From: Acidobacteriaceae bacterium
GTDB lineage: Bacteria; Acidobacteriota; Terriglobia; Terriglobales; Acidobacteriaceae
Length of the DNA stretch: 64,000 bases
Reading direction: 5' to 3'
Assembly: GCA_027306695.1 (NCBI GenBank)
Contig: DAHUZH010000005.1
Span: 358-64,357 of the forward strand
The notes beneath the pieces were generated by a model. The model saw only the letters and a program-made list of their open reading frames with translations. It was not told the DNA's origin and made no database searches. Below are positions 28,127-45,709 of this stretch, piece after piece. Numbering within the stretch: position 1 is the stretch's first letter; every line of letters starts with the position of its first letter. The position numbers were made by a program, and so were the translations under genes.

Positions 28127-28460
28127 GCGGATCTTCGTCGCCGATCCAAAGGAAGGGTCGCGGCACAATCGTGGCTGCGCCGTGGATCTGACTCTTTATG
28201 ACCTGAAGACTGGAAAGCCGATCGAAATGACGGGCGTTTACGATGAAATGTCCGAGCGGTCCTATCCTTTTTATCCGGGAGGGACTTCGCTCGAGCGCTG
28301 GCATCGCGATCTTCTGCGGCATGTGATGGAGTCGGAGGGCTTTCAGGTGTACGAGTTCGAGTGGTGGCATTTCGATTACAAGGACTGGCAACATTATCCC
28401 ATTTTGAATTTGAAGTTCGAAGATTTGAATGGGGCCGCAGCAATGAAGAAAGCAGCGTGA
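28086..28460 (+). pseudogene. D-Ala-D-Ala dipeptidase (VanX/DdpX, peptidase M15D) remnant lacking the N-terminal ~75 residues
   Basis: 'FVADPKEGSRHNRGCAVDLTLYD...MTGVYDEMSERSYPF...FEWWHFDY' matches the SxHxxGxAxD zinc site and the ExxH of VanX/DdpX. The frame is closed by TAA at 28080-28082 one codon upstream of the ATG. The ORF overlaps the CPBP 3' end by 41 nt. It could still be translated as a 124-aa stub. Confidence 0.6.
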
Positions 28461-28490: not shown

Positions 28491-31400
28491 ATGACAATGA
28501 TGAAGAATAAGAAAACGATTTTGTTCTCGTTTGCAGCCCTTGCGATGTTCCTGATATGGCCGCGGAATATGCCAGCCCAGAACGTGAGCGCGTTGGCCGA
28601 GCAAATCCATCAAATCACGCACAGGCCTGTCTACGAACATTCAAGTTTCGGCGTGGAAGTGTATTCGCTGGATGAAGACAAAGTTATATACTCGCTTCGC
28701 AGCCAGCAGCTTTTCACGCCAGCCTCAACAACCAAGCTGCTGACGGAAGGCACCGCTCTTCAGCTTCTCGGTCCGGGTTACCGCTTTCACACGCGAGTCT
28801 ATCGCACGGGCCCGGTCACTCCAGAAGGCACATTGCAGGGCGATTTGGTTCTTGTAGCGAGCGGAGATCCGAATCTCTCGGGCCGGATTCAGCCAGATGG
28901 CGCGTTGGCATTCGAGAACGAAGATCATGCCTATGGCGGCAGCCCCGACACCAAAGCCGTTCCCGGCGATCCGTTGCTGGTGGTCCAGGAACTTGCGGCG
29001 CAAGTCGTAGCGCACGGCGTGAAGCGTATTGCAGGGCGTGTTCTGGTGGACGCAACGCTGTTTCCCGAAGGGGAACGGGACCTTGGGACTGGCATCGTGA
29101 TTTCACCGGTCTCAGTGAACGACAACATCGTAGACCTGACGGTTGCGCCGGGCAGCAAGGAAGGCGCCGCTGCCACGCTGCATATTTCGCCAGCAAGTAC
29201 GTATGTAACATTTGTCAACCAGATCACCACTGGGCCTGCCGGTTCAAAGCCGGATATAAATCCGATGGCGGACGTCACAAATCCAGACGGCTCGCATACT
29301 GTGACGCTGAGCGGAAAGTTCCCGCTGAACAGCCCCTCCATCCTTTATCCCTATGCGGTTCCGCAACCGAACCGCTTCGCTCAGATGGCCTTCGCCGAAG
29401 CTCTTCGTGCAAAGGGCATCCAGGTGGGAACTTCGTCGCCGAGCGGGAAGCCTGATTTCAAAACATTAGCGGCTTCTTATACGGATGGAAATGTCGTTGC
29501 GGAGCACGTCTCGCCTCCTCTCTCCGAAGAAGTCAAGGTGACCTTGAAGGTCAGCCAGAATCTGCATGCCAGCATGATGCCATTCATTCTCGGTGCCGTG
29601 CTCAGTCACAAGACGCAGGACGCGGAGCAGGCCGGTTTCGATCTCGAACACGATTTTCTCGCCAAAGCCGGTCTGGACCTGAGCGGCGCTTCGCAGGGGG
29701 ATGGAGCGGGCGGCGCGCAATCTGCCTTCTTTACGCCGGATTTCATGGTGCATTACCTCGCGTTCATGTCGAAACAGAAAGACTTCCAGCTTCTTGAAAA
29801 AGCACTTCCGATTCTTGGCCGTGACGGAACACTTTGGAATATAGAAGTAAATTCACCGGCAGCAGGACACGTCTTTGCCAAAACTGGCACCTTTGGTGCG
29901 TACGACGCGCTGAATAAGAATTTGATGCTTACCGGCAAAGGTCTGGCGGGTTACATGACAACCGCCGATGGCCGCCACGTCGCATTTGCGATCTACGCCA
30001 ATCGTGTTTCATTGTCCGCAGAGGATACGGATGCTCCTGAGAAGCTCGTGGGCCAGGCGCTGGGAAAAATTGCAGCGGCAATTTATTCCACTCCATCGGG
30101 TGAAGCAGCGCCCTTCGACGTCATCATCAAGAATGGTCACATTCTCGACGGTGCTGGAGGTACCTGGTACGCGGCCGACATTGGAATTCGTGGAAACCGC
30201 ATCGCGGCGATCGGAAAACTCGATGACGCGCAGGCCAAGAAGGTGATTGACGCAACCGGTCAAATTGTTTCGCCTGGCTTCATCGACATGCTTGGGCAGT
30301 CGGAGATGGCCCTTCTTGTCGATAACCGCTCGCTGAGCAAGCTATCGCAAGGGATCACGTCCGAGATCACGGGCGAGGGTGGCTCGATCGCGCCGCAGGA
30401 CGCAAGGACGCTTGCAGCACTCCAACCCTCCCTGGATGTCCTGCATGTCAAGGTCGACTGGACGACCCTCGATGGCTACTTCCGCCGCCTTCAACTGAAC
30501 GGGACGCCGCTCAATCTCGGCACATACGTTGGCGCGGCGCAGGTACGTGAAGCTGTGATTGGGGAGGAGGACCGCGCTCCCACGCCGGCCGAACTCGACC
30601 AGATGAAAGCTCTGGTGGCGCAGGCGATGAAGGATGGAGCGATGGGGCTTTCCACGGCATTGATTTATCCGCCCGGCTCCTATGCCAGGACGGATGAATT
30701 GATTGCGCTCGCCAAGGTTGCCGCGCAATATGGCGGCATTTACGCGACCCACATGCGCAGCGAGGGTGCAACGGAAATGCAAGCTCTCGATGAAGCGATC
30801 CGCATTGGCCATGAAGCTGGATTGCCGGTGGAGGTCTTCCACCTTAAAGCGAGTGGCAAGTCACGTTGGGGCACAATGCCACAGATTGTCGCAAAGATTC
30901 AGGCGGCGCGCGACTCCGGGCTTGACATCCGCGCCGATCAATACCCTTACCTCGCGGGCGGAACCGCACTGGCCTCCGCGCTGCCGCCGTGGGTGGCCGA
31001 CGGCGGAGTGGAGAAACTGCTCGAACGCTTGCATGACCCAAAAGTTCGTGCGCGTATCAAGCGCGAGATGGGCGCCGACCACAAAGATTGGGAAAATCTC
31101 TATTTCGACAGCGGCGGCGGATCGGGCGTACTCATTTCTGGCGTTGTCAATCCTGCGCTGAAAAAGTACAACGGCAAGACTGTGGCGCAGATGGCGAAGG
31201 CGGAAGGAAAGCCTGATCTGGATGCATTGCTCGACTTTATCCTCGCCGACAAGGCCCAGACCGGAGCGCTCTATTTCATCGCCAATGAGAAGGACTTGAC
31301 GTACGCCCTCAAGCAGCGGTGGACCTCAATTTGCCTGGATGCCAACGAGACATCACTCAATGGGCCACTCTTTGAACCGCAGAACCATCCCCGAGCGTGG

Positions 31401-31733
31401 GGAGCTTTTCCGCGCTTCCTCGGATACTACGTCCGCGACGAGCACTTGATGCCGCTTGCGGAGGCCATTCGGAAGATCACATCTATGCCGGCGCAGCGGG
31501 AACATCTGACCAACCGCGGACTCATCAAAACGGGTTTCTACGCGGATATCACGATCTTCGATCCGGCTACGATCATTGATCGCGCCACATACGCCAACCC
31601 AAATCAACTTTCAAACGGCGTGGATTACGTGTTGGTCAATGGCCAGCTTGAATACGATCACGGGAAATTGGCTGCCGCGAAAGCGGGACAGATCCTCCGC
31701 GGGCCCGGCTGGTATGGAACCTCCGGTCGCTAG
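28491..31733 (+). CDS. Fusion protein: PBP4-type D-Ala-D-Ala carboxypeptidase/endopeptidase (peptidase S13, DacB-like; aa 1-~532) + D-aminoacylase-like amidohydrolase (aa ~542-1080)
   Basis: Signal peptide MTMMKNKKTILFSFAALAMFLIW. S13 motifs 'TPASTTKLLT' (SxxK), 'VSQNLHA' (SxN) and 'FAKTGT' (KTG). Linker STPSGEAAP at 30087-30113. Then 'FDVIIKNGHILDGAGG...GNRIAAIG...SPGFID', 'GGIYATHMRSEG', 'VFHLK' and 'HPRAWGAFPRFLGYYVRD' are typical of N-acyl-D-amino-acid deacylases. Confidence 0.85.
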   Translation: MTMMKNKKTILFSFAALAMFLIWPRNMPAQNVSALAEQIHQITHRPVYEHSSFGVEVYSLDEDKVIYSLRSQQLFTPASTTKLLTEGTALQLLGPGYRFHTRVYRTGPVTPEGTLQGDLVLVASGDPNLSGRIQPDGALAFENEDHAYGGSPDTKAVPGDPLLVVQELAAQVVAHGVKRIAGRVLVDATLFPEGERDLGTGIVISPVSVNDNIVDLTVAPGSKEGAAATLHISPASTYVTFVNQITTGPAGSKPDINPMADVTNPDGSHTVTLSGKFPLNSPSILYPYAVPQPNRFAQMAFAEALRAKGIQVGTSSPSGKPDFKTLAASYTDGNVVAEHVSPPLSEEVKVTLKVSQNLHASMMPFILGAVLSHKTQDAEQAGFDLEHDFLAKAGLDLSGASQGDGAGGAQSAFFTPDFMVHYLAFMSKQKDFQLLEKALPILGRDGTLWNIEVNSPAAGHVFAKTGTFGAYDALNKNLMLTGKGLAGYMTTADGRHVAFAIYANRVSLSAEDTDAPEKLVGQALGKIAAAIYSTPSGEAAPFDVIIKNGHILDGAGGTWYAADIGIRGNRIAAIGKLDDAQAKKVIDATGQIVSPGFIDMLGQSEMALLVDNRSLSKLSQGITSEITGEGGSIAPQDARTLAALQPSLDVLHVKVDWTTLDGYFRRLQLNGTPLNLGTYVGAAQVREAVIGEEDRAPTPAELDQMKALVAQAMKDGAMGLSTALIYPPGSYARTDELIALAKVAAQYGGIYATHMRSEGATEMQALDEAIRIGHEAGLPVEVFHLKASGKSRWGTMPQIVAKIQAARDSGLDIRADQYPYLAGGTALASALPPWVADGGVEKLLERLHDPKVRARIKREMGADHKDWENLYFDSGGGSGVLISGVVNPALKKYNGKTVAQMAKAEGKPDLDALLDFILADKAQTGALYFIANEKDLTYALKQRWTSICLDANETSLNGPLFEPQNHPRAWGAFPRFLGYYVRDEHLMPLAEAIRKITSMPAQREHLTNRGLIKTGFYADITIFDPATIIDRATYANPNQLSNGVDYVLVNGQLEYDHGKLAAAKAGQILRGPGWYGTSGR

Positions 31734-31772
31734 CTGTGGAGCCTCATCCCGATTTCACCAAGAGTGCTCGCT

Positions 31773-32534
31773 TCAATCTTCATAGTGCTCCAATAGGTAG
31801 ATTCCATTTCCGTTTTCCACCCTGAATCCGGTCACAGCGAAACCCTGTGCAAACCGCTCCTGGAAATCCATTTTGAGCCGAGCCTGGACTTCCTCAGCAT
31901 GCCGCGATCCAGAGTTCTTCCAGTCCTCCATCTCCGCAGGCACAACAATCTGGACCGCATTGGAAGCAACGGTGGGAGCGCTTCCAGCAAGGGCGCTCTG
32001 GACGCGGCTTGAAGAGACCTGCCATTCTGCAACCAGGCGGTCTGTGGGAAGGCCGCCATGCAGCGGGCTTGACGTTATCCCGTAAAGATTCGGATAAAAG
32101 CGACGTATGATCGCGCCCAGACGCACGACATTGAAATAGGCGTTGCGGGGGGCCAGTGGGTCGAATGTCCATTCCATCAGAGGGACCTGCTGGGCCAGCG
32201 CTATCTCTCGTTGCTTCAGTTTCAGCAGGCGGCCCAAACCGCGATTCTGATATTCAGGGAGCACCCCGACGATATGGGAATGTAGATATCGCAGGTCGCC
32301 ACGGAACGCGGGGAACGCAAGAGCAAACCCAGCAGGTTTCGATCCATGATGGGCGAGAAGGGTATGACCGCCGACCTTGTTGGCGACGACAAAAATAGCC
32401 GAAGGAGTCACATCTTCGTCGGGATCGTCCCATATCGTGCGTTGTAAATCCATGCACTGGCGAATCCCATCGAGAGATCCGCAAACCTCGATTGAGAACT
32501 GCGCAGGAAGTGCCGGGTCTTGTATGAAGTTCAA
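31773..32534 (-). CDS. GNAT-family acyltransferase (COG3375-like), cytoplasmic
   Basis: 253 aa. 'VGVLPEYQNRGLGRLLKLKQRE' is the Q/R-x-x-G-x-G/A acyl-CoA site. TTG start at 32534 preceded by GAGGGA. No signal peptide. Confidence 0.65.
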   Translation of the reverse strand: MNFIQDPALPAQFSIEVCGSLDGIRQCMDLQRTIWDDPDEDVTPSAIFVVANKVGGHTLLAHHGSKPAGFALAFPAFRGDLRYLHSHIVGVLPEYQNRGLGRLLKLKQREIALAQQVPLMEWTFDPLAPRNAYFNVVRLGAIIRRFYPNLYGITSSPLHGGLPTDRLVAEWQVSSSRVQSALAGSAPTVASNAVQIVVPAEMEDWKNSGSRHAEEVQARLKMDFQERFAQGFAVTGFRVENGNGIYLLEHYED

Positions 32535-32706
32535 TGTCGTCCCTCACTTTGTCCAATACATGCGAATCTTTATCTATAATGATACAAATGTTTCTTATTG
32601 TCTTGGTTTGCGCAGAACAGAGACGCCATAGAAATAATTAGTAAAAAATTAATAAAACACGAAACATTCAGCGATGTGAAACATTTGATGCATTTCTCAA
32701 TACAGC

Positions 32707-34080
32707 TTACTGTCCATCCTTCATAGTCGGCCTCGGAAAGACACGAAAAAACAGATATACAGGAACACCGGTCAGAATCATCGCGATTCCAAAGCACGCA
32801 TGAATAGGATCGTTCAAAATGGTACTGAGCGAAATTCCGATCGCAGCCAAAATGAATAAGAGCGGCAGCCATGGATAGGCTGGCACGCGAAAGCTGCGTT
32901 CCAGCTCTGGTTTTCTGATCCGAAGCACGATCACGGCGGCAACCGTAAGCCCGTAGAAGATCCATGCAGTGAAGATGACATACGTGAATAGCTGCTGGAA
33001 GTTGCCCGTCAAAGTCAGCAGCGATGCCCAAACGCCCTGAACAAGAATCGCCAGAATCGGTGTATGAAAGCGCTGGCTGGTTTGACCAAGGCATCGAAAG
33101 AAGATGCCATCGCGGGCCATGGCGTAATAGACGCGCGGCCCAGTAAGGACCATGCCATTCATTGAACCCAGAATAGAAGTAAGAATCAGGATCGAGATCA
33201 GCACCGTCGTTCCCATGCCGTAGGCAACCTGGATTGCGGTGGCGGCTGCATGGTCCGTACCTCGGATTGCGAGGGGCGTTAAGACAGAGTAATAGGCGAT
33301 ATTCATCAGGACGTAAATCGCCGCGACAATCGCCGTTCCCAGGAACAGGCTCTGGGGCAGGTCGCGTTTCGCAGAGCGAAACTCGCTTGCAGTAAATGAA
33401 ACGACATGCCATCCTTCATACGCCCACAATACCGCGACCAGAGCCGCCCCAAAAGGAAGTAAAGAGTGCGATGTAGGCATGGTCGGAGGAAAGCTGGCTT
33501 GCAGCAAGTGAACGTGTCCGCGCCAGAGTAAGAGTACGAAAAGCAGGGCCAATCCTGCCAATTTGCTGACTGTGCTTACGTTCTGCACCAGCTTGCCGAG
33601 GCGGACCCCTAAGCAATTCACTCCTGTCAGCAGAAGGATGCAGGCAATGGCTGTAATTTTCTGCCCGGCGACGGTGAGCGGAAACAGGCGCGAAAGATAA
33701 AGACTGAAACCGACTGCTAAGGTTGCAATGCTGCCGGACTGGATCATGGATAGAAGGCCCCAGCCATAGAGAAAAGCTGGTAGTCTGCCAAATGCATGTC
33801 GCAAGTAGACATACAGTCCGCCTGCTCCGGGATAAATAGAACCTAGTTCGCCCAGCGACAATGCGCCGAATAAGCTGAGCAGGCCGCCAACGATCCACAC
33901 CAGCAATACCGCACTCAGCGAGCGCAGGTGCGCCGCAATCGGGCCTGGGACAAGAAATATTCCCGACCCAATCACCGTTCCAACGACTAGGGCGATACCG
34001 TCCGCACGGTTCAGTTCGCGGACTAAGCCTGTTTTTCTGTCCAGTGCCTGTGGGTCAGACTTCGTACCAACGGAATCCAT
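32707..34080 (-). CDS. APC-superfamily amino-acid permease
   Basis: 457 aa, ~12 TM. 'ALVVGTVIGSGIFLVPG' and 'AYEGWHVVSFTASEFR' are typical of amino-acid/polyamine/organocation transporters. GAGGAA lies 7 nt upstream of ATG 34080. Overlaps the RpiR stop by 26 nt. Confidence 0.9.
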   Translation of the reverse strand: MDSVGTKSDPQALDRKTGLVRELNRADGIALVVGTVIGSGIFLVPGPIAAHLRSLSAVLLVWIVGGLLSLFGALSLGELGSIYPGAGGLYVYLRHAFGRLPAFLYGWGLLSMIQSGSIATLAVGFSLYLSRLFPLTVAGQKITAIACILLLTGVNCLGVRLGKLVQNVSTVSKLAGLALLFVLLLWRGHVHLLQASFPPTMPTSHSLLPFGAALVAVLWAYEGWHVVSFTASEFRSAKRDLPQSLFLGTAIVAAIYVLMNIAYYSVLTPLAIRGTDHAAATAIQVAYGMGTTVLISILILTSILGSMNGMVLTGPRVYYAMARDGIFFRCLGQTSQRFHTPILAILVQGVWASLLTLTGNFQQLFTYVIFTAWIFYGLTVAAVIVLRIRKPELERSFRVPAYPWLPLLFILAAIGISLSTILNDPIHACFGIAMILTGVPVYLFFRVFPRPTMKDGQ

Positions 34081-34936
34081 GCTTTTGTTCCTCGGCTGCT
34101 GGGCGCAGATAGTTCAGCGTACGTTCGCGATCGTAATTGCCAAACGCGACTAAGATCACGTTCGCGAGCGCGATCGGCGCAACGTAGGAGGCGGTGAACG
34201 ATCCGCTTTCAACCGAGGACAAGAAAAATTCGTCGGTAAACTGGGCGATAGGAGAAATATAGGTGTCCGTGATGCCCACGCAATATGCGCCATTCTGCCG
34301 GGCTATCTGCAGACCCTCGATGGTCTGGCGCAGCCCCCGGCGAAAGCTGATGGCGATCACGAGGTCCTTGCGCCCGAGGGTCCGAGTCACATGCATTGTT
34401 CGCCCGGTGGTTGTGGCGATGAGCACGGGGAGACCAAGCAATGTCATCTGATATTCCATGTAGTGGACGAGGTTCGCGGCAAAATCCCCACCAAGGATGA
34501 GAATGCGCCGCGCCGAATGGATGCGCTTCGCGAGAAGGGTGATCCGGGATGGATCGAGGCTGTTGCGGAGCGCTGCCAGGTTTTTAAGGTCTTGGTCCAG
34601 GCAATCGCGTATGTGAGAGGGGATGCTGCCGTCCTTCGCGACGCTTGCCTGCATTCCTTCTAAAGATGTGGCATTGGCGATCGATAGGTCGTGCAGATAG
34701 TTTTGGAAAGAACGGTAGCCGTCAAAACCCAACTGCTGCACAATTCTCACAGTTGTAGCTGGGTCCGTACCTAATCGTTGCGCGGCGGCACGAACACTGA
34801 GCAGGACAAACTCACGCGGATTCTCAAGCACTGGCCGGATGATCTCCTGCCGACGTGGGCTAAGTTGGGCGATCTGGAGGGTGAGCCTGCCGACGGGGAC
34901 CGCATGGTTCTGGCGCGTATTGGGCTTCTTTTGCAT
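34055..34936 (-). CDS. MurR/RpiR-family transcriptional regulator (HTH_6 + SIS domain)
   Basis: 'LSVRAAAQRLGTDPATTVRIVQQLGFDGYRSFQNYL' is the RpiR HTH. 'RRILILGGDFAANLVHYMEYQMTLLGLPV...DLVIAISF' is a SIS phosphosugar-binding fold. Confidence 0.9.
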   Translation of the reverse strand: MQKKPNTRQNHAVPVGRLTLQIAQLSPRRQEIIRPVLENPREFVLLSVRAAAQRLGTDPATTVRIVQQLGFDGYRSFQNYLHDLSIANATSLEGMQASVAKDGSIPSHIRDCLDQDLKNLAALRNSLDPSRITLLAKRIHSARRILILGGDFAANLVHYMEYQMTLLGLPVLIATTTGRTMHVTRTLGRKDLVIAISFRRGLRQTIEGLQIARQNGAYCVGITDTYISPIAQFTDEFFLSSVESGSFTASYVAPIALANVILVAFGNYDRERTLNYLRPAAEEQKHGFRWYEV

Positions 34937-35215
34937 ATGGGAGGAGAATGAACGAAATCGGTTGGACGGTCAAGTCTTAATCCAGGTATCGTCAATTCGC
35001 AAATCTACCCGCGTATATATGAATCAAACGTTTGTTGGTGGCGCTCTTATTCTGCAAGCATTTAGTATGCAAGGATGCAAAAGAAAATATACTATACGCG
35101 GCCTTCGATACATGCAACAATTGTTTCTAATTTCGATGACTTCAAGAACATTCTTCGCAGCAGGCGGTGTTGACCACGGACTTCCATGCACCGAGTGATT
35201 CCCTGGAGTGTGTAG

Positions 35216-36943
35216 ATGTACATTCGACCCACTTATCGAAACAGTGTCCTCCGAGTCCTTGGCATGGCCGTGGCCCTTGCGCCATATCTGTGCGCAACGC
35301 CATCCGTCGCCGCAAATCCGCAGCGTATTTCCTCGATAGCAGCGAAGCAGCCGATGTACGACATCGTAATACGCAACGGCAGGGTCCTGGATGGAGCGGG
35401 CAATCCATGGATTCACGCCGACGTTGCTATCTCCAACGGCCATTTCGTCAAGATCGGACGCATCGCAGGAAAGGGCAAACGGGAGATCGACGCCACGGGC
35501 GATTATGTTACGCCAGGCTGGATCGACATGATGGACCAGTCGGGAGAGGTGCTGCTCAAGAACGGACTGGCCGACAATAAATTGCGAGAGGGTGTGACCA
35601 CCGCGATTTCGGGGGAAGGCGGCACGCCGGTCCCTGCGGAAAAGATCCCAGAATATTTTGCGCAGCTTCAACGACAAGGGACCAGCCTGAACTTCGGCTG
35701 TTACTACAGTGAAGCGCAGGCGCGCGTTGCCGTACTGGGTTATGTGGACCGCAAACCCACGGTTGCGGAACTGGATCGCATGAAGGGCCTGATGGCCACA
35801 GCCATGCAAGGCGGAGCGATGGGCATGACGACGGCGCTCATCTATCCACCATCCAGCTTTGCCACGACCGATGAATTGATCGCAATGGCCAAGGTCGCCG
35901 GGCAGTATGGTGGCATCTACGCCAGTCATATGCGCGATGAAGGCAAAGGCGAGCTACAGGCAGTCGATGAACTCATTGAGATCGCGGACAAGGGACATTT
36001 GCCGGCAGAAATCTTCCATCTGAAAGTCGCCTATCAGCCCGACTGGGGAAAAACCATGCAGGAGATAGGCCAGCATGTTGCCGCAGCACGTGCGCGCGGA
36101 GTGGAGGTCGCTGGCGATCTCTACGTGTACACGGCAGGCGGCACTGGCCTCGAGGCCACAATTCCATCCTGGGCGCAAGAAGGTGGAGTCGCTGCGCTGA
36201 AGAAACGCCTCCGCGATCCTGTCATCCGCGCCCGCCTTAAACAGGAACAAAAGACCGGATCGCCCGGCTGGTGGAACGTCATCGAGGCTTCCGGGGGATG
36301 GGATGGAATCGTCCTGGTGAATGCCGCCAATCCAGCCAACGAGAAGTATGAGGGCAAAACCATGACGGAAGTCGCGAAGGAAATGGGCACAGACCCCGCC
36401 GATGCGGCCTTCGATTTAGTGGAGCAAGGCCAGTCCCGGGTGTTGGCAATCTATCACATGATGGGTGAGCAGGACATCGACATCGCACTGCGTTTCCCAT
36501 GGACCAGTATTGGCAGCGATGCGGGTAGCTCGGCCATTGCTGGCGGGGATGATGCACTCGGGCTTCCTCACCCGCGAGCTTATGGTAATTTTCCTCGCGT
36601 GATTGCGCGTTATGTAAAGGAAGAACACGTCCTCACGCTGGAAGATGCGATTCGTAAAATGACTTCATGGCCTGCGGAGCGCATGCGCTTGAATGGACGC
36701 GGCGTCATTCGCCAAGGCGATTGGGCGGACGTCACGATCTTCAATTACGACAAAATCCAGGACCGCTCCACGTATGCGCAGCCGGACCTGTACCCCACGG
36801 GAATTGATTACGTGCTGGTTAATGGCCAGGTAGTCGTCGATCAGGGAAAACACACCGGAGCGAAACCAGGAATGGTGCTGTATGGACCAGGCCATTCTCC
36901 CAATCGTTTGCCCAAAGCGACTGAGAATCGGAAGAGTAGATAG
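35216..36943 (+). CDS. Exported D-aminoacylase-like amidohydrolase (N-acyl-D-amino-acid deacylase family), paralogue 2
   Basis: GGAG lies 7 nt upstream of ATG 35216. Signal-like N-terminus. 'YDIVIRNGRVLDGAGNPW...TPGWIDMMDQSG', 'GGIYASHMRDEG', 'IFHLKV', 'LPHPRAYGNFPRVIARYV'. ~50% identical by eye to the C-terminal half of the fusion. Confidence 0.85.
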   Translation: MYIRPTYRNSVLRVLGMAVALAPYLCATPSVAANPQRISSIAAKQPMYDIVIRNGRVLDGAGNPWIHADVAISNGHFVKIGRIAGKGKREIDATGDYVTPGWIDMMDQSGEVLLKNGLADNKLREGVTTAISGEGGTPVPAEKIPEYFAQLQRQGTSLNFGCYYSEAQARVAVLGYVDRKPTVAELDRMKGLMATAMQGGAMGMTTALIYPPSSFATTDELIAMAKVAGQYGGIYASHMRDEGKGELQAVDELIEIADKGHLPAEIFHLKVAYQPDWGKTMQEIGQHVAAARARGVEVAGDLYVYTAGGTGLEATIPSWAQEGGVAALKKRLRDPVIRARLKQEQKTGSPGWWNVIEASGGWDGIVLVNAANPANEKYEGKTMTEVAKEMGTDPADAAFDLVEQGQSRVLAIYHMMGEQDIDIALRFPWTSIGSDAGSSAIAGGDDALGLPHPRAYGNFPRVIARYVKEEHVLTLEDAIRKMTSWPAERMRLNGRGVIRQGDWADVTIFNYDKIQDRSTYAQPDLYPTGIDYVLVNGQVVVDQGKHTGAKPGMVLYGPGHSPNRLPKATENRKSR

Positions 36944-36955
36944 CTTTCAGAAAGT

Positions 36956-37474: not shown

Positions 37475-37509
37475 TCCATCCCCGATTCGGCGGAAGCCAG
37501 AAGCTCTTG

Positions 37510-38133
37510 CTAAAAATGCACGATGCCGCGCTGTAGCGCTGTGGTAACGGCCTGTGTGCGGTCCGTTACGCCTAACTTGCCAAGGATGCTGTTGATGTGA
37601 GTTTTCACTGTCGCTTCCGAGATGGTCAATTCCTGGCCAATCTCCTTGTTGGATTTGCCGGAGACAATTTCGCGGAGAACATCCATCTCCCGGTCCGTGA
37701 GCGATGGCCGTGTCATTCGTTCCGTGAGACGCTCCGCAACCTCCGAAGGAATTCTGGATTTGCCAGAGTGGACCGCGCGGATCGCATCCATGAGTTCATC
37801 GCCAGACATCCCTTTCAAAAGATAGCCGCGAGCGCCAGCATCGAGTGCACGATGAATGTCTTCATCCCCGTCGTAGGTCGTCAATACGATGATGCGCGCC
37901 TGGGGAAACTGGCTGCGAATGCGGGTTATGGCCACGACGCCACCCATACCTGGCAAACGTAAATCCATCAAGGTAACATCCGGCAGGTGTTTCTGGAACA
38001 ACTCGATGGACTCACGCCCATCGGCTGTCTCGGCAACTACCTGCATCCCAGGTACGGCGTTGATTAAAGCGACGAGGCCTTGCCTTACCACATGATGATC
38101 TTCCACCACCATGATCTTGATCGAGTCGGGCAT
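37510..38133 (-). CDS. NarL/FixJ-family response regulator (REC + LuxR-type HTH)
   Basis: 'IKIMVVEDHHVVRQGL...DVTLMDLRLPGMGG' is REC. 'LTDREMDVLREIVSGKSNKEIGQELTISEATVKTHINSILGKLGV' is GerE/LuxR HTH. ATG 38133 has AGGAAA upstream; the tracked ORF extends to ATG 38181. Confidence 0.9.
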   Translation of the reverse strand: MPDSIKIMVVEDHHVVRQGLVALINAVPGMQVVAETADGRESIELFQKHLPDVTLMDLRLPGMGGVVAITRIRSQFPQARIIVLTTYDGDEDIHRALDAGARGYLLKGMSGDELMDAIRAVHSGKSRIPSEVAERLTERMTRPSLTDREMDVLREIVSGKSNKEIGQELTISEATVKTHINSILGKLGVTDRTQAVTTALQRGIVHF

Positions 38134-38198
38134 CGTATTTCCTGTCTTCTGAGCCGTATTTATAGCTGCGGCCCGCAACATATTGCACTTTATACATA

Positions 38199-41100
38199 TT
38201 ACTCAAGCGGTACTTCCACGGATATTCTGGTTCCCGCTCCAGGGTTGCTATCTATCATGAATGTTCCACCGATCGCTTCCGTTCTTTCACGCATCCCTAT
38301 CAGTCCAAAGTGACCTTCTTGTCTGGATGCAGCCATGTTTGTTGTAAACCCAACACCATCATCTTCGATCCGCATATGCAGACGCGCAATATCGTATTGC
38401 ATCTGGATTTGTATGCGTGTGGCTTTTGCGTGGTGCAGAACATTTGCGACTGCTTCGACCGCAATCTTGAGGATTTCAGATTCGATTTCATCGGTAAGCG
38501 ACCGATAGGTCCCGGTGAATTGAATGTCCGTCTCCAGCGGCTTGCCGGCTGTTCGCTGTTTGATTGCGGTTGAAAACCTGGATGCAAAGTCAAGCGTTCC
38601 GTCTTCATTTGAGCGAAGATTCCAGATGGAACGACGCGCCTCGGAAAGGCTGTCGCGTACCAGCTTGCGTGTCTGGTCCAACTGCTCCCGAACCAATTGT
38701 GGTGAAGTCGCAAGCATCTGTGTAACCAACTCCAACTGTAGTGAGATTCCAACAAAGCCTTGCGCCAGTGTGTCGTGAATTTCGCGGGCAATGCGGGTAC
38801 GCTCCGCCAGCACGGCGCTGAAACGAGACTCAACCTGTTGGACGCGCCAACGATAGACAAGCCAGCCGATGAAAAAAATCAACACAGCACACAGGAGATA
38901 GAACCAGTACGTCTGGTAAAAGTACGGCTCAAGCCGAAATGCAAAAGATGCGGGGGCCGTACTCCACACTCCATCATTGTTGGCGGCGAGCACCTGAAAG
39001 CTGTATTTTCCAGGCGGAACGTTTGTGTAATAGGCCACACGCCGCGTGCCGGCATCGATCCAGGAATGGTCGAAACCCGAGAGGCGGTATTTGAAATGCA
39101 CCTTTTGCGGAGCTACAAAGCTGAGTCCAGCATAGCGAAATGAAAACCGACTATGCCCCGGAGTTATTTCAATTGGCCCATCCAGAGGCATATTTTTTTC
39201 ATCGACAGAAACCTGCTCGATGGCAACCAACGGAGGAACGGTATTCCGTTCAAAATTTTCTGGATCGATCCATGCCACACCTTTTAGCGTGGAGAACCAC
39301 AGAGTCCCGTCGCTGGCCTTCCACGAAGAGGGATGGCCAATACCGCTACACTCGCTGATCTTCATTCCGTCCGCCGTGCCATAGGATGTAATCGGTATGG
39401 TTCGGATTCGACCCGAAGCAAAGCCAATTAAATCGCTGTTGCGCACCCGGAAAATCCCCGTGTTTGAGCTGATCCAGAGGTGGCCTGAATCATCTTCCAG
39501 AATTCCATCGATGACATCTGGAAGCCCAAGGCTTGGCGCGAAGGACCGAATCTCCGCTTGCGAATCGGCTTTACGGAGAAGGTTGAGACCTTCTCCATTC
39601 GTGCCGATCCAGAGATCGCCCTGTCGATCTTCATATAATGCAGTGATGACGTTACTCGAAAGCCCATTTTTTTTTGTATAGTTCTTGAATCTTCCATGCT
39701 GAAAATGGCTAAGCCCGTGCAGCGTCCCAATCCATAAACTGCCGTCTCTGCCTTTTGTCGTGGCCCCGACAAAATCATTGGCCAGCCCGTCGGCTTGCGT
39801 ATAGATGGTTGAGCGGCCGTCTTTCACGCACGCTAGTCCATGCTTGGTTCCAACCCACAAAGAACCAGCGGAATCTGCCAGGAGCGACCGAACAAATTCA
39901 TCGGGCAGGAGATCGGCGGAGTTTGCTGGGGTGAACCGGCCATGCTCCATAGAATTGAGTCCATTTGGAGTTCCAGCCCACAAATTTCCGTTTTTGTCTT
40001 CTGCGAGAGCTAGGATCGTATCGCTGGTCAGCCCCTGTTTTACCGTGTAGGCCAAGATATGGTTGCCATCGTAACGATCGAGACCACCGCCATCGGTACC
40101 GACCCATATATGTCCCTGACGGTCCTGCAATACGGAACTCACAAGGTCGTCGGATAGACCATCGCTGGATGTAAGGGTCGTGAACTTCTGGTCTCGCAGG
40201 ATTGCAACGCCGCTGGATTCCGTGCCGACCCACAGAGATCCCTCACGATCTTCATAAATCGCAAGTATCAGATTTTTGGACAGGTCTTGTTTGGAAGAAA
40301 AAGCACTAATCTCTCCATCGATGATGCGGGCGATTCCATGATTCGTGCCCACCCATACTGCTCCTTCGTGGTCCTGGTAAATCGTCTGGATTTGATTGCC
40401 CGGCAAACCATTTTTAGTGGTATATGCCTTCAGGCTTCCTTTCGTCATTACCGCAAGGCCGGCAGGAGTGCCAATCCATATATTTCCTGACAGGTCTGCA
40501 AGCAAGACATCTACTTCATTGTCGGGCAATCCTTCGGCGAGGCCATACGTGCGGAGCGTACCATTTGACAGCAGATGCAGTCCGCTCTGCGTGCCGAGCC
40601 ACAGGTTGCCCGATCCGTCGCTTTCAATTGCGCGGACCGTCTCGCTTTCCGGTGGAGCGCCAACAATGCGTCGCACAATGCGTCCGCTTCGGATTTGATT
40701 CAGGCCGCTGTCGGTTGCTACCAACAAGGATCCATCCGGGCCGTTTGTGAGTGCGTTGACAGTATTACTGGAGAGCCCTTGGCGCGTTGTATATGGGATG
40801 AAACGATCCTGACTGTAATAAGCTAGCCCGCCTGCCGTAACGGCCCAGATTGCACCTTTGCTGTCTTGAAATGTGCTCCATACATTGTTGTCCGGTAGGC
40901 CTTGGGATGTGGTGAATAAAGCGATGTTGGAGCGGTTCAATCTAGTAAGTCCGTCGGCAGTAGCGATCCACAGGTTTCCTTCCCGGTCTTCCAGAAGATT
41001 TCGGATGTCATTGCTGAGCAGCTGCGGGGTATTTCTTCGGTTGTAGACCGTGAAATCGATCCCATCGAATCGAGCCAGTCCTTCGCGGGTTGCGAACCAG

Positions 41101-41402
41101 AGATATCCATCGTAGGTCTGCAAAATCGCACGCACAGAATTCTGAGGCAGACCATTGTCTATCTGCCAGATTTGCTGTCCATATTGGCCCAGCTTTCGAC
41201 CGGGGTTCAGTGCATGGGCTGAAACGCCTGCCAGTACGATGAGTGTCAGTGGAATCCAGCGAAGCCGCTGGACCACGCGGATGGAAGGGACAAACCCCCA
41301 TTTGTATTTTGGAACATGATGCATCATGGCAGTCGAAGCAGAGCGAACCATGCATTGCGCACTCAAGCCGAAACCCATCGAAAGGCTGGGTCTGCCATTC
41401 AT
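38199..41402 (-). CDS. Sensor histidine kinase with periplasmic two-component-regulator beta-propellers + Y_Y_Y domain, HisKA_3 + HATPase_c
   Basis: About 700 aa of repeats such as 'DREGNLWIATADGL', 'GAVWVGTNHGI' and 'GSLWIGTLHGL' (Reg_prop). 'FKYRLSGFDHSWIDAGTRRVAYYTNVPPGKYSFQVLAANNDGVWS' (Y_Y_Y). TM 'YWFYLLCAVLIFFIGWLVY'. 'ERTRIAREIHDTLAQGF' (HisKA_3). C-terminal ATPase. Start among several Met codons is uncertain. Confidence 0.9.
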   Translation of the reverse strand: MNGRPSLSMGFGLSAQCMVRSASTAMMHHVPKYKWGFVPSIRVVQRLRWIPLTLIVLAGVSAHALNPGRKLGQYGQQIWQIDNGLPQNSVRAILQTYDGYLWFATREGLARFDGIDFTVYNRRNTPQLLSNDIRNLLEDREGNLWIATADGLTRLNRSNIALFTTSQGLPDNNVWSTFQDSKGAIWAVTAGGLAYYSQDRFIPYTTRQGLSSNTVNALTNGPDGSLLVATDSGLNQIRSGRIVRRIVGAPPESETVRAIESDGSGNLWLGTQSGLHLLSNGTLRTYGLAEGLPDNEVDVLLADLSGNIWIGTPAGLAVMTKGSLKAYTTKNGLPGNQIQTIYQDHEGAVWVGTNHGIARIIDGEISAFSSKQDLSKNLILAIYEDREGSLWVGTESSGVAILRDQKFTTLTSSDGLSDDLVSSVLQDRQGHIWVGTDGGGLDRYDGNHILAYTVKQGLTSDTILALAEDKNGNLWAGTPNGLNSMEHGRFTPANSADLLPDEFVRSLLADSAGSLWVGTKHGLACVKDGRSTIYTQADGLANDFVGATTKGRDGSLWIGTLHGLSHFQHGRFKNYTKKNGLSSNVITALYEDRQGDLWIGTNGEGLNLLRKADSQAEIRSFAPSLGLPDVIDGILEDDSGHLWISSNTGIFRVRNSDLIGFASGRIRTIPITSYGTADGMKISECSGIGHPSSWKASDGTLWFSTLKGVAWIDPENFERNTVPPLVAIEQVSVDEKNMPLDGPIEITPGHSRFSFRYAGLSFVAPQKVHFKYRLSGFDHSWIDAGTRRVAYYTNVPPGKYSFQVLAANNDGVWSTAPASFAFRLEPYFYQTYWFYLLCAVLIFFIGWLVYRWRVQQVESRFSAVLAERTRIAREIHDTLAQGFVGISLQLELVTQMLATSPQLVREQLDQTRKLVRDSLSEARRSIWNLRSNEDGTLDFASRFSTAIKQRTAGKPLETDIQFTGTYRSLTDEIESEILKIAVEAVANVLHHAKATRIQIQMQYDIARLHMRIEDDGVGFTTNMAASRQEGHFGLIGMRERTEAIGGTFMIDSNPGAGTRISVEVPLE

Positions 41403-41954
41403 TTTCGGGTCCAGGGCAGACGAGTTTGGCCTCTGTACATTCGGAATTGCCTCTTGAAAGCTGGATACATTCTAGCCCGTTGCGAACAGTTGACCGCACG
41501 GATATTGTTTTCTTTACATGGGGTGTCATCCTCCCATTTGCGACGGCCCACTTCGATTTGCTGCAATGCGCTTCGGCGTCTACCGCTTCTTTGCTATTCT
41601 CCCAGATATCTCTGTATTAGTTTCTCTCTGGTGTCGTTAGTACAAAACTTGCTAGCATTCCACACGCGCGGCAATCTGCACTTTCATGCTTGGTTTAATA
41701 GAATCATACGAGCGGTAAAAAAGCCCCCTGGGTCTGTTGAACGGTGTCACCAGATTATTTGTGACTCTGCGTAGAAACGAAGGCCAACCCTGCCGTAAAT
41801 TGATAAAATAGAGATTGCTTCTTTAGTATGGAGCAAGGTTTGATCGGGAAAAATCTCTGAATTACGCTGACGATATTCTCGTAAATCATTGATTATAAAT
41901 GGATAGCAAGAGGTTTCGGATTGCCGAATCTGTGAAGGCTCCTGGATTTGTGGC

Positions 41955-43586
41955 GTGTTGCTAGAGTGCTCTTTTGCCCAACAGGCGTCTTTTCAGGATG
42001 TGAAGCATGCCGCCGGAGGCACTTTTTTGAATTCAGTCGTAGTTGAAGCTCCCATTGTTGCGCTCCCCGCTGCACAACCCAAGGCCGCTGCGCGAGCAAC
42101 AGTCATCCCTGCGTCCGTGATCCTCATAGCTCTCACCGCATTTGCAGCGATCATTCAGGGCTATCATCCCTACGCAGACGATGCGGGGATTTATATCGCG
42201 GGAGTAAAACTCGCGCTTCATCCATATCTTTACGGCTCAAGTTCAGCGTTTATTACCGGGTATACGCACCTCTCGATTTTTTCCAGTTTGATTGCAGCCA
42301 TGGTGCGGATGACACATTTGCCACTGCCATACGTGCTGTTCGGGATCCAATTATTCACCACCTGGCTGGTACTCTACAGTTGTTGGAAACTTGCACTGAA
42401 GTGTTTTTCAAGCCCTCAAGCGCGCTGGGGCGCTGTTACATTGGTGGCGGTCTGTTTGACCATGCCGGTGGCAGGGTCTGCGCTGTTCATCATGGATCCC
42501 TATGTTACCAGCCGTTCTTTTTCAACACCTTTGACGCTTCTTGCCATTGGGGCCGCTCTCGATCGGCGGTTCCTCAAGGTCTTTTTATGGTTGGTGGCTG
42601 TTGGACTTCTTCATCCTCTCATGGCAATTTATGCTGCGGGATTTCTGCTATTGCTTTGGATGATGCAAGAGGAACGCTGGCTGACCGTATCGGCACTGTG
42701 TGCGATGTCCATTTTTGCAGGCGCTGTCCTTCAATTTTCCCAGCGAAATGTTGTTGAATCCGCAGCCTATAGGACTGCCGCACTCACTCGGGCTTATTTT
42801 TACCTCTACAGTTGGAAATGGTATGAATTGTTCGGGCTGGTTGCGCCTCTGGCATTGATGTTTGCGTACTGCTGGTGGCAGAGATTCAATTTCCGCAAAT
42901 CGAGTGTTGCGCTCTGCGGCACATGTATTGCGATCGGGATGAGTTCCATAATCGTTTCGCTACTTTTTTCACATCCTGAAAGCCATTCACACTTGGTTGC
43001 ACGCCTGCAAACTATCCGTTCTTTTCTTATCATTTACATCATTCTGTTTATGGGGCTTGGAGGCCTGGTTACACAATATTTACTGAAGGGATTTGTTTGG
43101 CGCTGGGCGTTGGTGTTTCTTGGGATTGCATCCATCATGTTTGTAGCGCAACGTCGCGATTACCCAGCCTCTGCTCACAGCGAATTACCCTGGGTGCATT
43201 CCAGCAATAGCTGGAGCCAGGCATTTATTTGGATACGGAAAAACACGCCTGCCAATGCCGTCTTCGCATTGGATGCCAACTACATTGGGGCCAAAGGAGA
43301 AGATACGCAAGGTTTTCGTGCTATGGCTGAACGCAGTTCTCTGGCCGATTACTCTAAAGATGGAGGCACGGCGGCAGCCTTCCCACTGGTCGCAAAAAAA
43401 TGGATGGTAGAACATACTGCCGATACAAACCTCAACCGAATCAGCGACCAAGAGCGAATTCGGAGGCTTGCACCCCTGGGAGTCAGTTGGCTTGTACTCC
43501 AAAAAAATGCGGACACCCAGTTCGTTTGTCCATTTCACAATGCTGTCGTGAAAGTTTGTCAGTTGCCAAAATACGCAAGTAAATAG
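41955..43586 (+). CDS. Polytopic membrane protein, possibly GT-C-fold glycosyltransferase-like; function unknown
   Basis: 543-aa ORF with ~11 hydrophobic helices. It has an acidic 'YADDAGIY' motif in the first extracytoplasmic loop, like GT-C enzymes, and a ~130-aa soluble C-terminus. No in-frame ATG near the 5' end, so the start is GTG 41955 or TTG 41958. Confidence 0.6.
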   Translation: MLLECSFAQQASFQDVKHAAGGTFLNSVVVEAPIVALPAAQPKAAARATVIPASVILIALTAFAAIIQGYHPYADDAGIYIAGVKLALHPYLYGSSSAFITGYTHLSIFSSLIAAMVRMTHLPLPYVLFGIQLFTTWLVLYSCWKLALKCFSSPQARWGAVTLVAVCLTMPVAGSALFIMDPYVTSRSFSTPLTLLAIGAALDRRFLKVFLWLVAVGLLHPLMAIYAAGFLLLLWMMQEERWLTVSALCAMSIFAGAVLQFSQRNVVESAAYRTAALTRAYFYLYSWKWYELFGLVAPLALMFAYCWWQRFNFRKSSVALCGTCIAIGMSSIIVSLLFSHPESHSHLVARLQTIRSFLIIYIILFMGLGGLVTQYLLKGFVWRWALVFLGIASIMFVAQRRDYPASAHSELPWVHSSNSWSQAFIWIRKNTPANAVFALDANYIGAKGEDTQGFRAMAERSSLADYSKDGGTAAAFPLVAKKWMVEHTADTNLNRISDQERIRRLAPLGVSWLVLQKNADTQFVCPFHNAVVKVCQLPKYASK

Positions 43587-43987
43587 TAGTCGGACGTGGT
43601 CACAGTAAGGATCAAGCGACCCTCTATATTTTTGTAAAATGAAGGAAGCAACGCCAGGTGTAGGCAGCTCCTCATACTATTTTCTAAGCGTGTCCTGAAT
43701 ACTGCTACTCTGCAATCTTTGCAGACACCTACGCAACCAATGAACAGCCAACCGCGGAGAAGAGTGAGGAGTTTTTTCACCGGAAGTCTCTTACCGGTTG
43801 CGCAGCGGCGTAGGGAATGTCAAGAAAAGCGGCCGAATGCGTAAATGAATCGAAGGAGTTTCCTTCTAGGGTTTCAGCATCGATCATTGCCTCCGGCGGC
43901 CTCACTAATGTATCGTGCTCAAATCTTCCCACGCCAGGACTTCATGAGCGTCCAGAAAAGCGCCAATGAAAGTACCATGGCAGTTAG

Positions 43988-45709
43988 CTACAATTTTCCA
44001 GCCTGTTGCTTGTTGGGGACATATCCCTGTCCGCGCAATACCTTCCCCGGCAGCGCCCCGGTCATTTTTCCTTGGTCGATTACCGGCACACCGTTTATAA
44101 GCACATAATCCATCCCTTGGGAAAGCTGATTCGGTTTTTCGTAAGTGGCCATATCGCGAATAGTATTAGGATCAAAAATCACAATGTCCGCCCACATGCC
44201 CGTCTTCAATACGCCACGGTCTGTAAACCGCATGCGCTGCGCTGGCAGGGCGGAAAATTTACGGATCGCGTCCTCCAGGGTCAATTTGTGTTCTTCACGC
44301 ACGTACTTCCGCAAAATGCGTGGATAGGTCCCGTACGCTCGCGGATGTGGATGGTTCTGTCCAAGGATGCCTTCCGGCGAAATACCCTCCTCGTCAGTGT
44401 CGATCGAGACCCATGGTTGTTGCAAGGCCAGTGTTACATCTGGTTGCGACATTCCAAAGACAGCCACAGTGGTCGCGGCCTTGTCTTGAATCAATAAGTC
44501 GAACAGGGTATCCAGTGGGTCTTTCCCCCATATCCTCGCTATCTGCGCGAGGGTTTTTCCTTGTAGAGGAGCCAGCTTTGGGTTTTCCAGGCTACAGATC
44601 AGAACAGCATCTGGGCCGGGAATTTCTTGCCATTCGTTATCCCATGTCGTGGTGTCAGTCAGGAGGTCCTTGCGGATGTGCGCGCGTGTTGTGGGGTCCT
44701 GTAAGCGTGCAAGCAGTTTTGCATCGCCACCATCGTGGGCCCAGGGAGGAATGAACGCGGCCAGGCCGTTCGACCACGCAGTGTAGGCATAAGTATCGGC
44801 GGTCACATCCACTCCGCGAGCACGCGCGGCATCGACCTTTGCGACGACCTCTGGCATGCGGCCCCAGTTTTCTTTTCCGGCCACCTTGATGTGCCATATC
44901 TCGACGGGAATGTGAGCCTCACTCCCGATGTGCAGGGCCTCATCAATCGCAGGCAGTACGGAGTTGGATTCGTCGCGCATGTGTGTCGCGTAAATGCCAC
45001 CGAACTTTGAGGCCTCGGCCGCCATCGCAATCAGCTCGCTGGTTTTGGCATAGGGGGCCGGTGGATATTGAAGCGCGCTGGAGATGCCCACCGCTCCATC
45101 GCGCATCGCATCATCGACGAGCGACTTCATCTGTTCCAACTGTGCTGGAGTTGGCTGTTTATCGTCTTCGCCGAGCACCATGCGTCGCACCTGCGTCGCG
45201 CCAACGTAGCTTGCAAAGTTGTTCCCGATGCCTTGTTTTTCCAAACGCGCAAAGTATTGCCGAAATGTTCGCCAGTCTGGAGTAATGCCCAAGTGCTGAT
45301 AAGTCATTCGATTGGACTGAATAATAGCGTCGTTCAGTGGCGCGGCAGAGTCGCCTTCCCCAGTCACCTGCGTTGTAATGCCTTGGTAAATCTTTGAAGG
45401 GAGGCGCGGATCGACCAAGATTGTTTCTTCCGATTGCCCCAACATGTCAATAAATCCAGGTGCGACAACCTGTTCGTGCGCGTCGATCGTGCGTTTGCGC
45501 GTAGCCGCTGTCAGATTTCCTATGGCGGCGATCCGACCGGCCCGAATCCCCATGTCTCCTGAGTACCAGGGCGACCCGGTTCCATCGATGATGTGGCCAT
45601 GAGTGATTACGATATCGAAGGTCTGTGCGGAGCACCAGACGGATGCACTACCCATGCAAACTGCAAACAGTAGGGTAGGGAACAGCGGGCGTAGTTTTAG
45701 AAAGTTCAT
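43988..45709 (-). CDS. Exported D-aminoacylase-like amidohydrolase, paralogue 3
   Basis: Signal peptide MNFLKLRPLFPTLLFAVCMGSASVWCSAQ. 'FDIVITHGHIIDGTGSPW...APGFIDMLGQSE', 'GGIYATHMRDES', 'IWHIKV', 'HPHPRAYGTYPRILRKYV'. Confidence 0.85.
   Translation of the reverse strand: MNFLKLRPLFPTLLFAVCMGSASVWCSAQTFDIVITHGHIIDGTGSPWYSGDMGIRAGRIAAIGNLTAATRKRTIDAHEQVVAPGFIDMLGQSEETILVDPRLPSKIYQGITTQVTGEGDSAAPLNDAIIQSNRMTYQHLGITPDWRTFRQYFARLEKQGIGNNFASYVGATQVRRMVLGEDDKQPTPAQLEQMKSLVDDAMRDGAVGISSALQYPPAPYAKTSELIAMAAEASKFGGIYATHMRDESNSVLPAIDEALHIGSEAHIPVEIWHIKVAGKENWGRMPEVVAKVDAARARGVDVTADTYAYTAWSNGLAAFIPPWAHDGGDAKLLARLQDPTTRAHIRKDLLTDTTTWDNEWQEIPGPDAVLICSLENPKLAPLQGKTLAQIARIWGKDPLDTLFDLLIQDKAATTVAVFGMSQPDVTLALQQPWVSIDTDEEGISPEGILGQNHPHPRAYGTYPRILRKYVREEHKLTLEDAIRKFSALPAQRMRFTDRGVLKTGMWADIVIFDPNTIRDMATYEKPNQLSQGMDYVLINGVPVIDQGKMTGALPGKVLRGQGYVPNKQQAGKL

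Follow-up and report, generated by a model that had tools for sequence, protein, structure and literature searches.

A large, exported, glutamate-bearing branch of the D-aminoacylase family with a degenerate His-x-His motif, seen in three Acidobacteriaceae paralogues

In the literature, a Cys/His/His "subtype V" metal centre is the defining feature of the D-aminoacylase family (PMC12017989). A 64,000-nucleotide stretch from the genome of an Acidobacteriaceae bacterium (contig DAHUZH010000005.1; hereafter the window, whose coordinates are used throughout) encodes three paralogues, named A, B and C, in which the initial annotation could find, by eye, neither the His-x-His (HxH) motif nor the cysteine of this centre. 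This raises the question of how such proteins might hold a catalytic metal, and on which substrates. The three are the sole copies of the family in the host genome, a 4.0-Mb metagenome-assembled genome that is 91% complete:

28491-31733, plus strand: A, exported D-aminoacylase-family fusion (1080 amino acids [aa], intact open reading frame [ORF])
35216-36943, plus strand: B, stand-alone exported D-aminoacylase-fold protein (575 aa, intact ORF)
43988-45709, minus strand: C, stand-alone exported D-aminoacylase-fold protein (573 aa, intact ORF; Pfam Amidohydro_3 1.2e-17)

Both sequence and fold place these proteins in the D-aminoacylase family (COG3653; Pfam Amidohydro_3), and Pfam assigns Amidohydro_3 to A, B and C alike. 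In A the D-aminoacylase-fold domain is the C-terminal part (about residues 540-1080; Amidohydro_3 1.8e-20). It is preceded by a PBP4/Peptidase_S13 DD-peptidase that makes up the N-terminal part (about residues 35-511; Peptidase_S13 3.6e-63). This part scores above the TIGR00666 cut-off (175.3 bits vs 107.8), and its SxxK, SxN and KTG motifs can be read as STTK, SQN and KTG. The family domains share 45.7% (A/B), 50.6% (A/C) and 43.3% (B/C) identity, close to the roughly 50% estimated by eye. At the N-terminus of each protein a basic stretch precedes a hydrophobic, signal-like one. The best NCBIfam model, PRK09061, matches them at 197-215 bits, under its cut-off of 340, and public annotations call such proteins "D-aminoacylase", "N-acyl-D-amino-acid deacylase" or "amidohydrolase family protein". 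When the PDB was searched with HMMER, the best sequence match of B was the N-acyl-D-glutamate deacylase Bb3285 (3GIP, E 1.9e-57), and the Alcaligenes faecalis D-aminoacylase (1M7J/1RJP) was matched at E 7e-56.

The by-eye register was put to alignment against the characterised D-aminoacylases, and neither a His-x-His nor a Cys came to lie at the ligand positions. With HMMER, PGWIDMMDQSG of B aligns with PGFIDSHTHDD, so that His67 corresponds to M106 and His69 to Q108. The same positions are L601 and Q603 in A and L90 and Q92 in C, both of which read PGFIDMLGQSE. Where the subtype V centre has HxH, there is LxQ in A and C and MxQ in B, and where it has a Cys after beta-strand 2 there is GEGG or GEGD without Cys (TGEGGS in A, SGEGGT in B, TGEGDS in C; SGEGG of B aligns with TGNCG). 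The later ligands had been judged to be retained, and the alignments bear this out: the two histidines of beta-strands 5 and 6 and the catalytic Asp of beta-strand 8, equivalent to His220, His250 and Asp366, are aligned in all three proteins. In B, YASHMRDEG stands against YATHMRDEG of the reference (His220), FHLK against SHHK (His250 and Lys252), and the Asp is found in IGSD. The carboxylate pocket Lys252/Tyr283/Arg377, whose roles are described in PMC12017989, is also present (K270, Y303/Y305 and R454 in B). These residues are encoded as follows:

30273-30305, plus strand: A, PGFIDMLGQSE at the end of beta-strand 1 (L601 at 30291-30293, Q603 at 30297-30299)
30375-30377, plus strand: A, Glu629 of TGEGGS, a loop that follows beta-strand 2 (putative carboxylate ligand in the place of Cys96)
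30750-31340, plus strand: A, retained residues (H754 at 30750-30752 for His220, H784 at 30840-30842 for His250, D950 at 31338-31340 for Asp366)
35531-35617, plus strand: B, variant residues (M106 at 35531-35533, Q108 at 35537-35539, E134 of the SGEGGT loop at 35615-35617)
35927-36520, plus strand: B, retained residues (H238 at 35927-35929, H268 at 36017-36019, K270, D435 at 36518-36520)
44393-45442, minus strand: C, variant residues (L90 at 45440-45442, Q92 at 45434-45436, E118 of the TGEGDS loop at 45356-45358) and retained residues (H243 at 44981-44983, H273 at 44891-44893, D439 at 44393-44395)

The further claim, that Glu has taken the place of the Cys, is true of the entire loop but not of single alignment columns. 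The Glu-type loop reads G-E-x-x-S-x-x-P and is one residue shorter than the Cys-type G-N-C-G-x-S-x-A-P. Because of this missing residue, the gap-free HMMER alignment sets the Glu on Asn95 and the following Gly on Cys96; MAFFT places a gap at the Cys column instead. The alignments indicate that the change is a remodelled loop and not a point substitution. No solved chain with a GEG loop came up when the PDB was searched with just the segment of the ligand loop.

The AlphaFold2 model of B (predicted local distance difference test 84, predicted template-modelling [TM] score 0.82) has the three parts of the family fold: a beta-sandwich, a TIM barrel and an insertion domain. In Foldseek it matches 3GIP, which ranks first, 1M7J, PpOngB (9KB1/3/4) and KleDacyl (9G5M) with target-normalised TM-scores of 0.87-0.89, and the next matches, to hydantoinases, are far weaker. 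In B the variant residues are found where model strands 102-107, 127-132, 234-238, 264-267 and 430-433 end, or shortly after, with E134 two residues beyond strand 127-132. Such strand-end positions are where amidohydrolases draw their metal ligands.

A HMMER scan of 1.84 billion representatives with C returned 27,575 relatives, 4,499 of them at E ≤ 1e-30. We aligned the top 150 relatives with the three window domains, which gave 141 near-full-length rows, and inferred a tree with FastTree after removal of the ligand columns. HxH (KxH in one case) occurs with G[NQ]CG in 82 rows. The Cys is absent from 53 others, in which the Glu is invariant (53/53) and the residue following it is variable (G/S/A/V/R), and in 6 rows the Cys column holds an Asp. 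No row combines Glu with Cys (0/141). The Glu group forms one side of a single branch (Shimodaira–Hasegawa-like support of 98). A quick IQ-TREE inference on a subset requires two changes, of which the well-supported branches force only one, and this is compatible with a single origin of the Glu state. Within the group the HxH position reads HxH, LxH, QxH, LxQ, MxQ, LxW or QxQ; HxH was lost no fewer than 3 times, with 10 or more changes at His69, and the Glu lineages that still have HxH are placed nearest the Cys clade.

The rest of the active site varies little. H238, H268, K270, Y303/Y305, D435, the H-P-R454 motif and R461 are 95-100% conserved in all groups. Among 51 Glu-type representatives, the equivalents of His220, His250, Asp366 and Lys252 are conserved at 97-100% and those of Tyr283 and Arg377 at 95-100%. 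Of 120 representatives of 90% clusters each, 119 of the B type and no fewer than 113 of the A type keep MxQ or LxQ with GE, a pattern far from chance, and orthologue groups are conserved at 70-97% identity across hundreds of clusters. The pattern indicates that the Glu change is ancient and under selection. Decay or pseudogenisation was rejected on the grounds of intact ORFs, conservation over hundreds of clusters and catalytic residues that, where retained, do not vary; the earlier view of a distinct, conserved subfamily is upheld by the well-supported branch and its invariant Glu. The Glu group is a large, HxH-degenerate branch of the D-aminoacylase family whose members are mostly secreted, and the Cys-less Glu form makes up a huge clade and is no rarity.

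A few members of the alignment stand apart. P0205, in the Glu group, has lost both histidines and the Asp (VVE-VMG), and its sister P0238 has lost the His220 equivalent (ESE-GHD); these two are possible candidates for true pseudoenzymes within the clade. In P0121 (1077 aa) and P0123 (955 aa), one of Glu type and the other of Cys type, Amidohydro_3 is matched in two or three stretches, which may be tandemly duplicated D-aminoacylase-fold domains in one protein.

How could a metal be held without these ligands? In Cys-type enzymes the catalytic metal is in a beta site on Cys/His/His, and an alpha site (HxH plus Asp) weakly binds a second, inhibitory metal (PMC12017989; PMC12149444); the beta site alone is catalytic in the scheme that defines the amidohydrolase subtypes (PMC12017989). 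We propose that the thiolate ligand Cys96 was swapped for the invariant Glu on the shorter loop after beta-strand 2, and that this Glu would hold a single beta-site metal together with the equivalents of His220 and His250. With the bridging ligand gone, there would be no alpha site at His67/His69 and the constraint on HxH would be relaxed. The Asp366 equivalent would stay the general base, and the Lys/Tyr/Arg pocket would still grip the free alpha-carboxylate. The strict exclusivity of Glu and Cys, the variable residue next to the Glu and the independent Asp-for-Cys variant all point to the Glu as the replacing ligand. The activity of Cys-less D-acylases (PMC12149444) implies that a carboxylate at the Cys site is compatible with catalysis. 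We find it fairly likely that the Glu ligates the metal, and we infer the one-metal state.

Comparison with known enzymes sets this proposal in context. The A. faecalis DA1 enzyme (1M7J/1RJP) and the Klebsiella KleDacyl (9G5M), both of subtype V, have the same three-part fold at about 28% identity and share with the window proteins the equivalents of His220, His250, Asp366, Lys252, Tyr283 and Arg377. The window proteins differ from them in the absence of Cys96, His67 and His69, in the invariant Glu on a loop one residue shorter, in being exported and not cytoplasmic, and in a mature form that is about 40-50 residues longer. Bb3285 of Bordetella bronchiseptica (3GIP), the closest match in sequence and structure, has a further tie to the group, as B orthologues of Sphingomonadales adjoin dgcN and dgcA, two genes of D-glutamate catabolism, but it has HxH with GNCG and is a Cys/His/His enzyme. 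The deacetylase of GlcNAc1A PpOngB (9KB1), with the same fold and the same carboxylate pocket, is an example of the fold serving substrates other than amino acids; it differs in keeping Cys97/His222/His252 and His68/His70, which are essential there (PMC12017989).

The nearest analogy for the metal site comes from outside the family. In the N-acetylglucosamine (GlcNAc)-6-phosphate deacetylase NagA of Escherichia coli (CE9), HxH is replaced by QxN and a Glu/His/His site binds one metal (PMC6016474, PMC12017989). The logic proposed here would be alike: one beta-site metal on a carboxylate and two histidines, with an Asp as base. NagA belongs to another family of the superfamily and differs in substrate and quaternary structure. 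Its Glu comes from beta-strand 3, whereas in the model of B the Glu follows beta-strand 2. The resemblance is convergent and not a matter of membership. Given this precedent, the metal-site idea is no great surprise. What gives it value is how large the clade is, how consistently its members are exported and fused, and that it can be tested directly.

Within the family, the "cluster B" D-acylases (Gox1177, the Microbacterium enzyme MnaDacyl and Streptomyces enzymes including Sco4986) also lack the bridging Cys and have proven D-acylase activity, and a 2025 review asks what the Cys-less members do (PMC12149444). Four Streptomyces genomes (G001-G004; loci L339-L342) hold three classes of homologues. 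The sole Cys-less class reads PGFIDMHAHSD...GQDG, with Asp in the Cys column, HxH kept and no signal peptide. These four whole genomes have no Glu-type copy at E ≤ 1e-20, and a Streptomyces plasmid copy is of the canonical GNCG type. Contig scans with an alignment of Glu-type sequences that keep HxH, and with an Asp-type protein, yielded matches from other phyla. The Asp-type G[QVP]DG representatives of our alignment (P0166, P0199, P0241, P0247, P0269, P0270) likewise keep HxH, are mostly without signal peptide and nest inside the Cys clade at several places. This Asp-type variant probably corresponds to the published "cluster B". Since the Cys-less Streptomyces copy has Asp and HxH, it is not of the Glu/HxH-less type, and the characterised Cys-less enzymes most likely represent a different variant from the Glu group. 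The literature searched contained no description of the Glu/HxH-less form or of its fusions, and no characterised enzyme with a Glu-type site. That the clade had already been characterised is unlikely: the known Cys-less D-acylases (PMC12149444) appear to be something else. Metal-dependent bile salt hydrolases were considered and rejected as relatives; they belong to another Amidohydro_3 branch and were modelled with two zinc ions and a carboxylated lysine (PMC13081902).

The second part of the question, that of the substrate, is informed by export, domain fusions and gene neighbourhoods. A signal-like N-extension or an N-terminal fusion is found in 41 of 50 Glu-type and in 11 of 82 Cys-type representatives (Fisher p = 3e-15). 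Glu-type domains are fused to Peptidase_S13, to Beta-lactamase/AmpH-like domains (five representatives), to class-A-like Beta-lactamase2 (two), to VanX-type Peptidase_M15, Peptidase_M19, Peptidase_M23 and Amidase_3, and also to PIG-L, PCMT, cyclophilin and alpha/beta hydrolase domains. The PBP4-amidohydrolase fusion of A is kept in more than 100 Acidobacteriota clusters. At least 594 stretches from species-representative genomes contain the B-type motif; the carriers include Acidobacteriota, Gemmatimonadota, Sphingomonadales, Brevundimonas diminuta, Sphingobium limneticum and Stenotrophomonas rhizophila. Among the best 80 loci, the genes near the B-type gene encode AmpH-like serine hydrolases (43/80), DgcA/NSAR-like racemases of the enolase superfamily (22/80), M19 dipeptidase (14/80), DgcN (14/80; NCBIfam E 2e-132), TonB-dependent receptors (10/80), RpiR regulators (about 10/80), an amino-acid permease (7/80) and GNAT (4/80). 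The clade is wired to the catabolism of peptidoglycan peptides and D-amino acids.

In Sphingomonadales and Brevundimonas (L065-L075, L079, L087, L089) the gene order is AmpH-like / dgcN / (alpha/beta hydrolase) / Glu-type amidohydrolase / dgcA, which embeds D-glutamate catabolic genes among exported D-peptide hydrolases; through the DgcN-DgcA route, D-Glu becomes L-Glu (PMC10845958, PMC12363236). Gemmatirosa kalamazoonensis, a cultured member of the Gemmatimonadetes, has a B-type orthologue, 68% identical, on its 1.04-Mb megaplasmid, whose record is unannotated (NZ_CP007130.1, 687336-688907).

The conserved Lys/Tyr/Arg pocket suggests a substrate with a free carboxylate. Taken together, the pocket, the export bias, the fusions and the neighbours argue for exported hydrolases that release C-terminal D-amino acids, and we infer that the substrates of the Glu group are acyl- or peptidyl-D-amino acids from peptidoglycan-type peptides. 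The possibility of a different substrate, raised at the outset, gains from this: fusions and neighbours point to peptides of D-amino acids over cytoplasmic N-acetyl-D-amino acids. The enzymes would act in the periplasm or extracellularly, where they would cut C-terminal D-residues off the fragments of stem peptides and off D-peptides of a similar kind, and in A this step would be tied physically to a PBP4 DD-peptidase. An APC permease would take up the amino acids set free, and the D-forms would be converted by an acylate-racemise-deacylate route (GNAT or DgcN with an NSAR- or DgcA-type racemase). The clade probably helps bacteria to digest cell-wall peptides that contain D-amino acids.

The complete reading, in which A, B and C are active exported metallo-amidohydrolases with a rebuilt Glu/His/His one-metal centre that release D-residues, we judge to be slightly better than an even bet. 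Several points weigh against it. The H68A and H70A variants of the Cys-type PpOngB lose all activity (PMC12017989), and the loss of both HxH histidines calls for a compensating mechanism. The gap-free alignment puts the Glu one position ahead of the Cys column; as adjacent side chains of a strand point opposite ways, ligation by the Glu would depend on the remodelled loop. OngB uses the same carboxylate pocket for an amino-sugar acid (PMC12017989), so that the pocket alone is no proof of a D-amino-acid substrate. The neighbourhood, finally, is not universal, with RpiR, permease and GNAT genes recurring in merely 4-10 of the 80 loci.

The alternative that survives best keeps these proteins as active hydrolases and denies the Glu its role as ligand. 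The metal would then sit on His/His/Asp and water, or catalysis would be metal-independent, and the Glu would be a second-shell or acid/base residue. Such a reading would fit the HMMER placement of the Glu on Asn95 and not on Cys96, the existence of a metal-independent subset of the superfamily (classification cited in PMC12017989) and the disappearance of four usual polar residues with HxH, the Cys and the D of HxHxD. It accounts poorly for the strict exclusivity of Glu and Cys and for a Glu that is invariant over very divergent lineages. Moreover, with one residue fewer in the loop, the Glu with its longer side chain can reach the place of the Cys, the Asp-for-Cys variant speaks for a carboxylate being accepted at exactly this position, and both beta-site histidines are invariant. 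We regard a non-ligand Glu as unlikely.

Less probable still is that fold and metal site are as proposed here and that the enzymes are OngB-like carbohydrate de-N-acetylases, acting on an N-acetylated amino-sugar acid or on the sugar part of muropeptides. PpOngB, among the top structural matches, combines the same fold with the Lys/Tyr/Arg pocket (PMC12017989), the regulator adjacent to B, a MurR/RpiR-type protein, has an SIS domain that binds sugar phosphates, and the GlcNAc deacetylase PIG-L is among the fusion partners. Against this, the partners are overwhelmingly D-peptide enzymes (PBP4, AmpH-like, VanX, M19, M23, DgcN/DgcA, the NSAR-type racemase) together with an amino-acid permease, and among the annotated window neighbours no sugar transporter or kinase was seen beside A, B or C. 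That the domains are catalytically dead modules which present D-peptides to partner hydrolases, as the loss of three classical ligand positions and the missing beta-site histidines of P0205 and P0238 might suggest, is very improbable given remaining catalytic and pocket residues conserved at 95-100% in the Glu-type representatives, members that are mostly stand-alone proteins, and orthologue groups held at 70-97% identity over hundreds of clusters.

Returning to the Glu/His/His reading, a bolder and decidedly tentative extension would make the Glu group an unrecognised amidohydrolase metal-centre subtype (beta-2 Glu/His/His, no alpha site) that arose on leaving the cytoplasm to replace an oxidation-prone thiolate; export and Cys loss may be linked in this way. 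Its members would be the missing extracellular LD/DD-"D-carboxypeptidases" of a widespread soil peptidoglycan-necromass pathway that feeds D-amino acids into acylate-racemise-deacylate salvage. If the site is as proposed, it would be a new metal-centre subtype and would explain why HxH can be lost. If the substrates are as proposed, a missing enzyme would be named for the turnover of bacterial necromass and D-amino acids in soils. Automatic annotation of these proteins as ordinary "D-aminoacylase" would also end.

The window itself holds genes of the same kinds as the recurrent partners of the Glu group:

12910-14418, minus strand: Beta-lactamase-family (AmpH/D-aminopeptidase-like) serine hydrolase with DUF3471 (Pfam)
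14480-15628, minus strand: enolase-superfamily gene of the o-succinylbenzoate synthase (OSBS)/N-succinylamino-acid racemase (NSAR) type (TIGR01928, 342.9 bits vs cut-off 200.65)
16056-19709, plus strand: TonB-dependent receptor, upstream of A
19717-23007, plus strand: tricorn-like S41 protease, upstream of A
23029-25041, plus strand: second Beta-lactamase-family hydrolase (AmpH-like), upstream of A
24893-27202, plus strand: S9 peptidase, upstream of A
27209-28126, plus strand: CPBP protease, upstream of A
28086-28460, plus strand: C-terminal half of a VanX/DdpX D-Ala-D-Ala dipeptidase (124-aa ORF), directly upstream of A
31773-32534, minus strand: GNAT-like acetyltransferase (Pfam, NCBIfam)
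32707-34080, minus strand: APC amino-acid permease (Pfam, NCBIfam)
34055-34936, minus strand: MurR/RpiR-family regulator (Pfam, NCBIfam)

B is transcribed divergently from the unit of rpiR, permease and GNAT genes (31773-34936), and the array at 16056-28126 is co-directional with A. The pair formed by the AmpH-like and OSBS/NSAR-type genes (12910-15628) also recurs beside B-type orthologues. The gene at 14480-15628 matches an OSBS model and sits in a peptidase/D-peptide locus, not in a menaquinone operon, which fits a role as N-succinyl- or N-acyl-amino-acid racemase; the GNAT at 31773-32534 would be a candidate for the acylating enzyme.

The VanX-like ORF matches NCBIfam PRK10178 (3.4e-24) over positions 87-179 of the 188 in the profile, and it shares 64% identity with the M15 domain that P0143 carries in fusion with a Glu-type amidohydrolase. 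The CPBP gene runs into this ORF at its own 3' end. Most probably the ORF is what remains of a truncated gene. The ORFs at 23029-25041 and 24893-27202 overlap by about 149 nucleotides, and the start of the S9 peptidase probably lies downstream of the first TTG.

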